From positions 64,001-128,000 of the IMG/VR virus record IMGVR_UViG_3300042373_001362: a stretch of 64,000 nt of DNA; one strand, written 5' to 3'. Each line of letters opens with the position of its first letter. Within the stretch, counting starts at the first letter, position 1. The translations under genes were made by a program, and so were the position numbers. Below the pieces are notes generated by a model, which saw nothing but the letters and a program-made list of their open reading frames with translations, searched no databases and was not told where the DNA came from. Below, one piece after another: positions 62,034 through 63,876 of this stretch. Source of the stretch: a virus.

Positions 62034-62240
62034 GTGAGGGAGACCCACCGCCTCTCCTCCGATACAACCGAATCGCACCAGTCCCTCCGCAGGATAAGGC
62101 TCTGGACAGCAAGCCTCTGATGGGCGTACGACCATCAAGCATCCGCCACAGTCCACCCGTCCTCCCTCTCGCGCGATAACTGCTCTAGGCTCGGGGGTGC
62201 TAGCCCCAGTATCGGAGGTGGGGCGGGGGGTCTTTTTCTT
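62034..62240 (+). ncRNA. Putative structured ncRNA 1 (~205 nt)
   Basis: Starts at +1 of the motif at 61997. The 5' AGACCCACCGCCTCTCCTCCGATAC pairs with the 3' GTATCGGAGGTGGGGCGGGGGGTCT, followed by a U-tract. Paralogous to 63668-63876. Confidence 0.75.
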
Positions 62241-62309
62241 TGTGCCAAAAGCGGGGCTTGGCACAAAGAAAGTTTGTCGGTCGTGGGTGGCCTGTTCTAA
62301 GATTGTCTT

Positions 62310-62612
62310 ATGAAAACAACAGCGAACAACGAAACAAGGGCAGCAATGAACGCTGCGTATCTAAACCCATTCGTCACGACATTGACTCTTGACGAAGTGC
62401 CGCACAAACGCAAATACACAAAAGAGCTGCGGGCTGGAGATTTCGTGGCCGTGTTTGTCAGCACCTCTCAGAAAGTTTGGGAAGGCTATTTTTCTTGGAA
62501 AGAAATCCGGACGATTGCTGCGACCCCTCAGGCCTATGTCCTGAAGTTCACAGACGGAACAGACGAACGACACCCAAAGTTCTCAGCAGGTAAATGGGAA
62601 GTGATGAAATAA
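62310..62612 (+). CDS. Leaderless hypothetical protein
   Basis: ATG at motif+36. Confidence 0.8.
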   Translation: MKTTANNETRAAMNAAYLNPFVTTLTLDEVPHKRKYTKELRAGDFVAVFVSTSQKVWEGYFSWKEIRTIAATPQAYVLKFTDGTDERHPKFSAGKWEVMK

Positions 62613-62730
62613 CCCGCCGGAATTTCCGGCAGCCGCACGCACGAGTGGCTAGCCCCGCTAGCCACTAATACGTGAGTGCTCCTCTTTCGTAAATTGTCGG
62701 TTAGGGGTGGGTGGGTGTAATGTTGGAGAC

Positions 62731-63027
62731 ATGAACACAACAGCAACAACACACACACAGTCAGCCCAACTAATTGACGATGCAACCCGTGAGGGTCGCC
62801 TCTATCACTTCAACGGTGGGCAGGCATACATCAAAGCAAGTGAGGACGATGTTCTCCTAATCATTGACATGACACAGGAAACACCCGACTTCACTTACCA
62901 CTATGGTGAGTTTGCCTCTAACTACTTCCGTAACAACCACCCACAGCCCACAGACAGGGAACCACTTGTTCCGTTCTACGCAGAAGTGGACAAAAGAAAA
63001 TTGTCGGTTCAGGGTGGGAAGAACTAA
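62731..63027 (+). CDS. Leaderless hypothetical protein; its 3' end reads through the next promoter
   Basis: ATG at motif+37. Confidence 0.75.
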   Translation: MNTTATTHTQSAQLIDDATREGRLYHFNGGQAYIKASEDDVLLIIDMTQETPDFTYHYGEFASNYFRNNHPQPTDREPLVPFYAEVDKRKLSVQGGKN

Positions 63028-63036
63028 GATAGAGAC

Positions 63037-63219
63037 ATGGAAACAGCACAAGCATTCATCATCGTCACTTGGTTCTTGGTCAAGTGTGCAGGACTCGCAA
63101 TCTTTGCAGTCGGCGCATACACCACTATCCAATGGATTAGGAAAAATGTCTCATTCTTCACTTACGAAGATGTAGACCCATCAGAAGACCCCGACTGGGT
63201 TCGGGAAAACTACGGATAA
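63037..63219 (+). CDS. Leaderless small membrane protein
   Basis: ATG at motif+36; one hydrophobic helix. Confidence 0.75.
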   Translation: METAQAFIIVTWFLVKCAGLAIFAVGAYTTIQWIRKNVSFFTYEDVDPSEDPDWVRENYG

Positions 63220-63667
63220 CAATCCGTAGACAGCGACAGCGAGAAAGTTCTTGCTCCCAGTTTGTCGCTGTACTGGTTGAGCAGAAAGAGAAAGAGTCAC
63301 TTTCGGGTGGCTCTTTCTCTATGTGGAGCCCCGGTTCTCCGGACAAAAAGAAAGAGCCCCAGCAATAAAGCTGAAGCTCCTCTTTCCTTGTGACTCACCA
63401 TTAGAGCTCTCAAGGAAGAGCTTATGTCTGGTCGTGAGCCAATCCAGCAAGGGGGACTTCCTTACCCGATAGTTGGTATCTGCCGATGTCCCTAACCCAA
63501 TCGAGCTAAGTACGGTTTCGTTCCTCAACAGCAGTGTCCCTGACTGATAGGTAAACATTACCAGCATTTCTCCAGCTTGTCAACTCAGATAGTCGTGGCC
63601 TCAATCTAGGCAACGGGGCTCATTTCCCGATTTGTCGGGTCAGGGGGGGTGGTGATAAATTGGTCTT

Positions 63668-63876
63668 GTGAGCGAGGCTCTTCGCCTCTCCCACACACAA
63701 CATAAGTGCATAGTCTCCCTTCTGGATAAGGCTCTTGTCACTGCGATATCCTCTCCACTCTCCGGAAGTGCGATGTTCCCTCCAGTCAGACAATCCGTCC
63801 TCCTCTGAATAGACCTCTCCTTATGGGGGTGACGACCTCGTGTGTGGGTGGGGCGAAGGGGCTCGCTCTTTCTTTT
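63668..63876 (+). ncRNA. Putative structured ncRNA 2 (~205 nt)
   Basis: Starts at motif 63632+36. The 5' GAGCGAGGCTCTTCGCCTCTCCCACACAC pairs with the 3' GTGTGTGGGTGGGGCGAAGGGGCTCGCTC, followed by a U-tract. Confidence 0.75.

Follow-up and report, generated by a model that had tools for sequence, protein, structure and literature searches.

In cluster A mycobacteriophages, the early promoter Pleft is known to give rise to a non-coding RNA that is abundant, stable and toxic to the host (PMC5712189), and OLE, ROOL and GOLLD are large orphan RNAs that self-assemble (bioRxiv 10.1101/2024.12.08.627333). Structured phage RNAs with examples at the level of function are few, comprising pRNA, a handful of small RNAs (sRNAs) and RNA anti-CRISPRs, and the abundant early RNAs of the mycobacteriophages are still unexplained. 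Here we analyze two RNA genes, designated A and B, located near the end of a 64,000-nucleotide (nt) stretch of a virus genome (the window; bases 64001-128000 of the 148,355-base-pair (bp) record IMGVR_UViG_3300042373_001362, which has direct terminal repeats). A and B belong to a family of RNA genes not described before, which is supported by covariation and was found only in a subset of large phages of the freshwater actinobacteria type. The two RNAs resemble stable decoys or scaffolds that bind protein, and not 6S RNA.

Each gene lies directly behind one copy of a promoter that is repeated about 55 times in near-identical form at genome positions ~114.8-141 kb (window 45700-64000 included). 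These array promoters consist of TTGTCGG and TAAGGT separated by a G-rich spacer of 18 nt, and 6-7 nt further there is usually the ATG of a small gene. Counted from the first T, this ATG is at 36-37 nt in most of them, so that the genes are leaderless, and many open with ATGGAAACAGC. Both A and B open with GTGAG, 37 nt (A) or 36 nt (B) past the first T of TTGTCGG, which is the position of the ATG in the leaderless array genes, and both are closed by a T-rich tract after the closing helix. The array consensus thus points to a promoter role for the elements upstream of A and B, and the T-rich tracts mark the putative 3' ends. Both RNAs fold into a closing helix (P1), a tight three-way junction with a small tetraloop hairpin (P4), and a long arm, with a minimum free energy (MFE) of -89.8 kcal/mol for A (z-score of -3.2 versus dinucleotide shuffles) and of -87.9 kcal/mol for B (z-score of -5.7). 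The features of both copies, derived from the sequence, the MFE folds, covariance models (CMs) and family comparison, are the following (window coordinates):

61997..62033, + strand: putative promoter of copy A (TTGTCG 61997-62002, 18-nt G-rich spacer, TAAGGT 62021-62026, 7 nt to +1)
62034..62240, + strand: non-coding RNA copy A (A-type), ~207 nt (MFE and CM)
62036..62065, + strand: 5' strand of the 28-bp closing helix P1 of A, paired with 62209-62238 (MFE fold; CGCCU core at 62049-62053)
62092..62103, + strand: 5' strand of the A module (GGAUAAGGCUCU), in which UAAGGCUC is invariant in all ~25 members
62125..62130, + strand: apical-loop palindrome CGUACG of A (palindrome check of 25 members)
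62155..62168, + strand: 3' strand of the A module (CCGUCC 62157-62162, followed by a pyrimidine tail)
62194..62207, + strand: P4 hairpin of A, GGGGU-GCUA-GCCCC, at the three-way junction (3-4 of 5 pairs covary in the family)
62209..62240, + strand: 3' strand of P1 and T-rich tail of A, terminator-like (sequence and fold)
63632..63667, + strand: putative promoter of copy B (TTGTCG 63632-63637, 18-nt spacer, TAAATT 63656-63661, 6 nt to +1)
63668..63876, + strand: non-coding RNA copy B (B-type), ~205-209 nt (MFE and CM)
63670..63698, + strand: 5' strand of the 27-bp closing helix P1 of B, paired with 63840-63868 (MFE fold)
63701..63716, + strand: P2 of B (CAUAAG, paired with 63819-63825) and P3 (GUCU 63713-63716, paired with AGAC 63811-63814; clamp folds)
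63724..63735, + strand: 5' strand of the B module (fold and family comparison)
63761..63766, + strand: apical-loop palindrome UCCGGA of B (palindrome check)
63793..63806, + strand: 3' strand of the B module (CCGUCC 63795-63800, followed by UCCUCU)
63826..63839, + strand: P4 hairpin of B, GGGGU-GACG-ACCUC (fold; covariation)
63840..63876, + strand: 3' strand of P1 and T-rich tail of B (a terminator scan flags 63850-63872, with a T run after it)

A preliminary description of this region had reported the GTGAG start at the promoter +1 and the T-rich end of both copies, which are borne out by the sequence, and had proposed that the array promoter drives the two genes, with which the matching +1 positions are consistent. 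The closing stems that it gave as ~25-29 bp correspond to the 28 and 27 bp of the MFE folds, and the CGCCU/GGGCG core, the GGATAAGGCTCT and CCGTCCTCC motifs, the differing stems between these motifs and the small 3' hairpin were all found. The shared 12-mer GGATAAGGCTCT is present at A and B only in an exact search across the genome, and begins 58 nt (A) and 56 nt (B) from the GTG; therefore it falls in different reading frames of the two GTG open reading frames (ORFs), as had been described. After each RNA there is a second hairpin (window 62238-62272 and 63877-63910), with a stem that differs per site and a loop that contains either AGCCCCG or the complementary CGGGGCT, a motif that recurs in the loop downstream of the RNA in L003, L009, L012, L015, L017 and L025. 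A 51-nt hairpin at window 39706-39756 (+ strand) matched the RNA models weakly (19 bits), in their closing-helix portion, and is probably unrelated to the family.

Homologues were collected with a pattern made from both shared motifs (21 nt, exact), used on viral, metagenome and prokaryote contigs. Genuine homologues were recovered with this pattern from viral contigs L003 and L005 and from metagenome contigs L007, L009, L012, L015, L017, L018, L021, L025, L027 and L028, and a looser pattern together with covariance models brought L046, L053-L055, L128/L129 and L132. A larger subfamily, of 225-250 nt, comprises L127, L135, L137, L138, L139 (two copies), L140 and L145, plus identical copies, and is represented by R3, a trimmed covariance model. 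The total is about 25 distinct homologues, from viral and lake metagenome contigs. L003, L017, L018, L028 and L128 are near-identical orthologues of A with compensatory changes in P1, and the second copy of L017/L018, L015 and L021 are orthologues of B. Two paralogues per phage were found in this window, in L017, L018, L027 and L139, and in the contig that holds both L135 and L145, while G001, a 31%-complete fragment, carries the A-type only. Other hits of the search were rejected as chance, being coding-like and scoring at most 11 bits with the covariance model; these are the four prokaryote-genome hits (L030-L033) and L002, L004, L006, L008, L010, L013, L016, L020, L022-L024, L026 and L029. 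Weak model matches at L131:3601-3687 (- strand, 16 bits) and L093:428-597 (+ strand, 31 bits) may be still more divergent members; L131 has two UAAGGCUCU strands, arranged differently.

The homologues show compensatory changes throughout the helices, and the structural signal is for this reason far beyond chance. In the small-family alignment (16 distinct sequences), the 26 aligned pairs of P1 are 96% paired and 20 of them have changed on both sides, as compared with 46-59% paired when the partner strand was slid by 1-3 columns; none of 500 column shuffles attained the observed values. When the larger subfamily was aligned separately, compensatory change was detected in 33 of 54 pairs, and in the P4 junction hairpin 3-4 of the 5 pairs covary. 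With the arm swapped for a clamp hairpin, P2 formed in all 13 distinct sequences except L046, and P3 in most of them (not in L046, L009 and L025). Compensating variants of P2 include AUAAG/CUUAU, AUAGG/CCUAU, AUGAG/CUCAU, CCUAG/CUAGG and CCCAG/CUGGG, and those of P3 include GUCU/AGAC, GGCU/AGCC, CAGU/ACUG and CCGU/ACGG. In a CM re-alignment that included P2 and P3 the subtypes stayed out of register, with P3 only 50% paired, and covariation of these two helices was judged by direct reading and by the clamp folds.

The same sequences speak for an RNA product made from the plus strand. G-U pairs are frequent in P1, and model R1 scored 179 bits on the sense strand of A versus 20 on the antisense, and 184 versus 30 for B. 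An ORF from the +1 start codon is not conserved among the homologues: all six frames are interrupted by stops in several of them, six of the 13 homologues checked lack any fully open frame, most have stops in all sense frames, and L005, L009, L015 and L025 do not begin with a start codon. The covariation, the G-U pairs, the lack of a conserved ORF and the sense-biased scores agree with the earlier proposal that the two copies are paralogous structured RNAs conserved at the RNA level. The homologue search by covariance model and the Rfam comparison that had been suggested with it also turned out in favor of a new family. With Rfam 15, no family (6S, Ms1 and Y RNA included) matched at E<=10 over A and B (cmscan of 61950-64000), nor at E<=0.1 over the divergent members, and a gathering-threshold scan of the whole window returned tRNAs only. 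Those tRNA genes number five, in two clusters on opposite strands (window 34626-35552, +, and 42664-43472, -). A full-text literature search on the module sequences gave nothing relevant.

The part of the RNA that is truly invariant, amid variable surroundings, is a two-stranded internal module. It consists of UAAGGCUCU, usually preceded by GA, opposite (A)YCCGYCC and a pyrimidine tail, with CCGYCC invariant across the family, and occurs either single or nested twice. Its 5' and 3' strands are always equal in number, 1:1 or 2:2, and in nested order, so that they act as a pair. In the RNAalifold prediction, GGAU..GG is paired with CC..GUCC and an AA bulge is left over. A second module replaces the large "bubble" of the arm in L015, L021, L053, L132 and the whole larger subfamily. 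Around the module, P1 measures 27-30 bp family-wide, with an invariant CGCCU/GGGCG core kept in the small family; the three-way junction is tight, with two unpaired A residues from a conserved ACAAC; P2 and P3 are set apart by pyrimidine-rich internal loops; and the distal domain beyond the module is variable and terminates in a hairpin. The P4 loop is GACG or GCUA, the larger subfamily having two such junction hairpins on the 3' side. No exception to the combination of closing helix, junction hairpin(s), UAAGGCUCU/YCCGYCC module(s) and apical palindrome was found among A, B and the ~25 homologues. Two known motifs were considered for the module and rejected: an ENE-like triple-helix clamp of the facing pyrimidine strands lacks the mirror symmetry that a triplex requires, and a kink-turn or loop E lacks, by eye, the required G-A letters on the 3' strand.

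The apical palindrome is a 6-nt sequence present in 25 of 25 members (L017 read by eye), at most 2 nt from the center of the distal domain. Eight hexamers were found, CGUACG, UCCGGA, CCUAGG, UCUAGA, ACUAGU, GCUAGC, CCCGGG and CCGCGG, and paralogues of one phage mostly differ, as do CGUACG and UCCGGA in this window. Direct reading of the C-type, D-type and L053 sequences shows a shift of one nucleotide between the palindrome and the register of the stem, so that in these members the palindrome does not simply continue the stem. This pattern is the one expected of a kissing-loop site, and suggests self-dimerization of the RNA.

Analysis of related genomes showed that the RNA family is accessory, as neither of two covariance models had a match in five complete relatives (151-170 kb, with a helicase 65-69% identical) and the same models detect the RNA in G000-G003. 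Among 185,579 prokaryote species genomes, the exact 21-nt pattern led to no genuine homologue, and neither megablast nor blastn matched the region to any of 50,697 phage records, so that no cultured phage among these records carries the region at >=65% identity. A set of 80 loci around the SNF2 helicase of relatives contained three full-length R1 matches, to which R3 added a single weak one (L093); as the position of the RNA relative to the helicase is not conserved, such loci are unfit to measure prevalence. The accessory distribution weighs against a core role in packaging or replication, and the RNA would be no core component of either process.

The genome that carries A and B encodes an HK97-type capsid protein, a portal protein, a large terminase and baseplate proteins (Terminase_6N/6C and Phage_portal domains were found), together with an Rpf-type transglycosylase domain (PF06737), which is characteristic of Actinobacteria. 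Its capsid protein is nearest to those of Gordonia and Brevibacterium phages (47-48% identity), and the homologous metagenome contigs come from what we take, from their sample identifiers, to be lake and river samples. On the basis of the Rpf domain, the capsid relatives and the origin of the homologous contigs, the host of the phage is likely a freshwater actinobacterium. Two giant ORFs, of 3963 and 3490 aa, occupy genome 55483-67374 and window 5034-15506, in that order, the latter with an RNase_T exonuclease domain at residues 1863-2041. Within the array, promoters without a start codon at +1 begin at window 55012, 56318 and 60418, and further ones are located at genome 133868, 136335, 138962, 140366 and 141013; they may drive leadered genes or additional non-coding RNAs, and none of these sites matches models R1-R3. 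Phages with the larger RNA subfamily use another repeated promoter, with a TATAAT-like -10 element.

Directly downstream of B there are three paralogous genes for KTSC-domain proteins (genome 127968-128270, 128800-129096 and 129944-130252), the first of which begins within the window:

63968..64000, continuing to genome 128270, + strand: start of the first of three KTSC-domain genes (PF13619, E 4e-16), a candidate partner of the RNA

The KTSC protein, of ~100 aa, is the only protein family encoded near the RNA in both subfamilies, at 0.1-1.5 kb from it in eight loci. It is present in seven of the 10 RNA-positive records, in five as small genes and in two (G003 and G009) as a domain inside a giant open frame comparable to the two giant ORFs above, and in none of the five RNA-negative complete genomes does it score above the Pfam cut-off. 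A full-text literature search on the function of the domain gave nothing relevant. A sequence match (E 3e-9) relates the KTSC domain to the C-terminal 60 residues of a helicase of the HerA type (one chain of PDB 8wiv). HerA helicases occur in anti-phage defence systems, and one idea is that the small phage KTSC proteins mimic a domain of a defence protein.

The reading that we favor, tentatively and with slightly less than even confidence, is that A and B are stable, dimerizing early RNAs with an invariant module that binds a protein, and that they serve as a multivalent decoy or scaffold, in the form of a ribonucleoprotein, during host take-over or counter-defence. In this mechanism, host RNA polymerase would make the RNAs early and in quantity, and the closing helix would shield both ends from exonucleases and may serve as a processing site in the members without a terminator. 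The palindromic loops of two molecules would kiss to give a homodimer, and the invariant module would be the sequence-specific protein-binding site, so that each assembly could act as a stable multivalent decoy or scaffold. The small KTSC-domain phage proteins would be the first candidate partners, and a host RNA-binding factor the second.

Several observations weigh against this reading of A and B. The predicted module pairs never vary, and for this reason they do not amount to proof of pairing; moreover, the outer modules of L139, L140 and L053 have one predicted pair broken with no compensation, and the internal geometry given for the module is therefore tentative. In the A-type and L139 the palindrome keeps the register of the stem, and a palindrome at the apex of a hairpin can partly reflect the symmetry of the hairpin itself. 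Three RNA-positive fragments have no KTSC gene, and the association with KTSC comes from few, phylogenetically related and mostly fragmentary records, for which reason we regard the co-occurrence as a lead and not as a result. In addition, promoter use, transcript ends and abundance are all deduced from the DNA, and protein binding by the module from its pattern of conservation.

Among the alternatives, one is that the RNAs act as a Shine-Dalgarno (SD) sponge, as put forward in the preliminary description, or as a C-rich antisense regulator, with unpaired pyrimidine-rich segments (CCUCC and CUCCU) that would pair with the SD regions of leadered host mRNAs and block their translation while the leaderless early mRNAs of the phage escape. 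C-rich loops of the actinobacterial 6C/B11 sRNAs act as SD-blocking regulators in this way. The core of every member is indeed C-rich (0.29-0.39 C, with 0-3 CCUCC and nearly no GGAGG), the CCUCC copies in the loops of A and B are ~35-55% unpaired in the ensemble, and 41 of the 45 array genes of >=80 aa lack an SD-like motif, most of them beginning at +1. This much of the proposal stood. It was weakened by the absence of CCUCC from the cores of L053, L140 and L137, so that the segment is not conserved in every member, and the letters that are invariant, UAAGGCUCU and YCCGYCC, are others than CCUCC. A sponge needs neither a purine-containing strand nor a strict 1:1 pairing of strands, and would also hit the 34 of 108 non-array phage genes that have SD-like motifs upstream by crude start calls, the major capsid gene included. 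We therefore consider a sponge unlikely.

To the same degree unlikely is that the RNAs are mimics or decoys of a host RNA, such as the 3' end of 16S rRNA (helix 45, h45, with the anti-SD tail) or a CRISPR repeat, which would titrate a nuclease toxin, a Cas protein or an initiation factor in counter-defence or shut-off. The patchy, accessory distribution, the location in an early region among small accessory genes and the repetition of an invariant unit would fit such a role, as would a presumed likeness of the module 3' strand to the actinobacterial 16S tail and of UAAGG to UAACAAGG before h45. On the other hand, the exact 21-nt pattern has no genuine homologue in any host genome searched, and no Rfam family matches. 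A more specific version, in which dimeric decoys carry a nested module imitating the 3' terminal domain of host 16S rRNA with its anti-SD tail, and so disable SD-dependent initiation or a factor or toxin acting there, appears decidedly unlikely. If this version were true, the phage would run its ~55 leaderless early genes while leadered host translation is shut down, and the RNAs would constitute an RNA-based switch between two modes of bacterial translation initiation.

A cis-acting or ligand-sensing element is very unlikely, whether as a riboswitch-like aptamer, single or tandem, or as a processing or terminator cassette without function in trans. Invariant internal-loop letters amid variable helices, and their arrangement in tandem, are features that aptamers typically show too. 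In the C- and D-types the module pairing has a competitor in an alternative UUCG hairpin, and the larger-subfamily members have no T-tract and are followed immediately by the next promoter. In this window, however, the RNAs end in a T-tract and then the second hairpin, and as the downstream genes are each served by a promoter of their own, such an element lacks an expression platform.

The other role advanced in the preliminary description, a 6S/Ms1-like RNA that would bind host RNA polymerase as an open-promoter mimic, was not upheld and is now highly improbable. The length (~205 nt) and the closing helix that joins both ends are similar, and the A-, B-, C- and D-types have an internal loop of ~11-14 nt per side with helices on both flanks. 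Against this, neither 6S nor Ms1 was matched in the Rfam search, the hairpin past the bubble has just 5-7 bp, the bubble gives way to a second module in the members named above, and the P4 side hairpin makes the center of the fold a three-way junction. The 6S rod is not known to have such a junction with a side hairpin, and we know of no 6S counterpart of the invariant module.

The absence of any RNA gene, with either short proteins or a DNA element (a miniature inverted-repeat transposable element, MITE, or a cruciform) in its place, is barely credible: ORFs on both strands (28 and 46 aa for the GTG ORFs, 86 and 82 aa for the antisense ones), tblastn matches of the antisense ORF between types and inverted ends of 27-28 bp resembling MITE terminal repeats speak for it, but the frames are interrupted as given above, the ends covary without keeping their sequence and contain many G-U pairs, which the opposite strand would carry as A-C mismatches, covariation extends to four internal helices, and there are just two copies per genome, both at a promoter +1.

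The family proposed here as protein-binding decoy or scaffold RNAs is directly testable, as it offers a supported fold, a mutable invariant module, a predicted dimer loop and a candidate KTSC partner, and the genomes of relatives that have or lack the RNA can be set against each other as a natural contrast. Should a host factor prove to bind the module, the family would reveal a new route of take-over or counter-defence in Actinobacteria, and should KTSC proteins bind it, a widespread domain would gain a first function.

Compared with known systems, 6S (RF00013) and Ms1 RNAs resemble A and B in size, closing helix, elongated shape and, for some members, internal loop, and differ in the absence of a CM match, in the three-way junction and in the bubble, which is not conserved in the new family. 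The phi29 pRNA (120-174 nt) is likewise phage-encoded and early, with a 5'/3' helix and a three-way junction, and oligomerizes by loop-loop pairing. It pairs two different loops, whereas the loop of A and B is self-complementary, and no CM match to pRNA was detected. Unlike phi29, the phage of A and B has a conventional large terminase and a portal; a pRNA-like packaging role was rejected on the presence of these proteins and the lack of the RNA in the five complete relatives. Y RNA/YrlA molecules bind a protein (Ro/Rsr), have conserved letters in a 5'/3' stem, are modular and are present in some actinobacteria and their phages; A and B have no Rfam Y RNA match and no tRNA-like domain, and no TROVE-domain gene (PF05731) was found in the phage genome.

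CsrB/RsmZ-type sponges, OLE, ROOL and GOLLD share with A and B a repeated invariant unit on a variable scaffold and predicted intermolecular kissing loops, and ROOL and GOLLD are often phage-associated. The unit of A and B is a two-stranded internal module, in contrast to the GGA hairpin loops of the CsrB/RsmZ type, and the RNAs, with a multimerization that is predicted only, are far smaller than ROOL or GOLLD. Finally, the cluster A RNAs (L5, D29 and StarStuff; PMC5712189) are, like A and B, encoded by actinobacteriophages, placed at an early promoter (a strong one in their case) and free of a conserved ORF. They differ in that there is no blastn similarity between this region and the 50,697 phage records, and in that they come from a ~500-bp region at the genome end, whereas A and B are discrete, covarying units of ~205 nt inside a promoter array. 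The cluster A early RNA is the nearest functional precedent for A and B.

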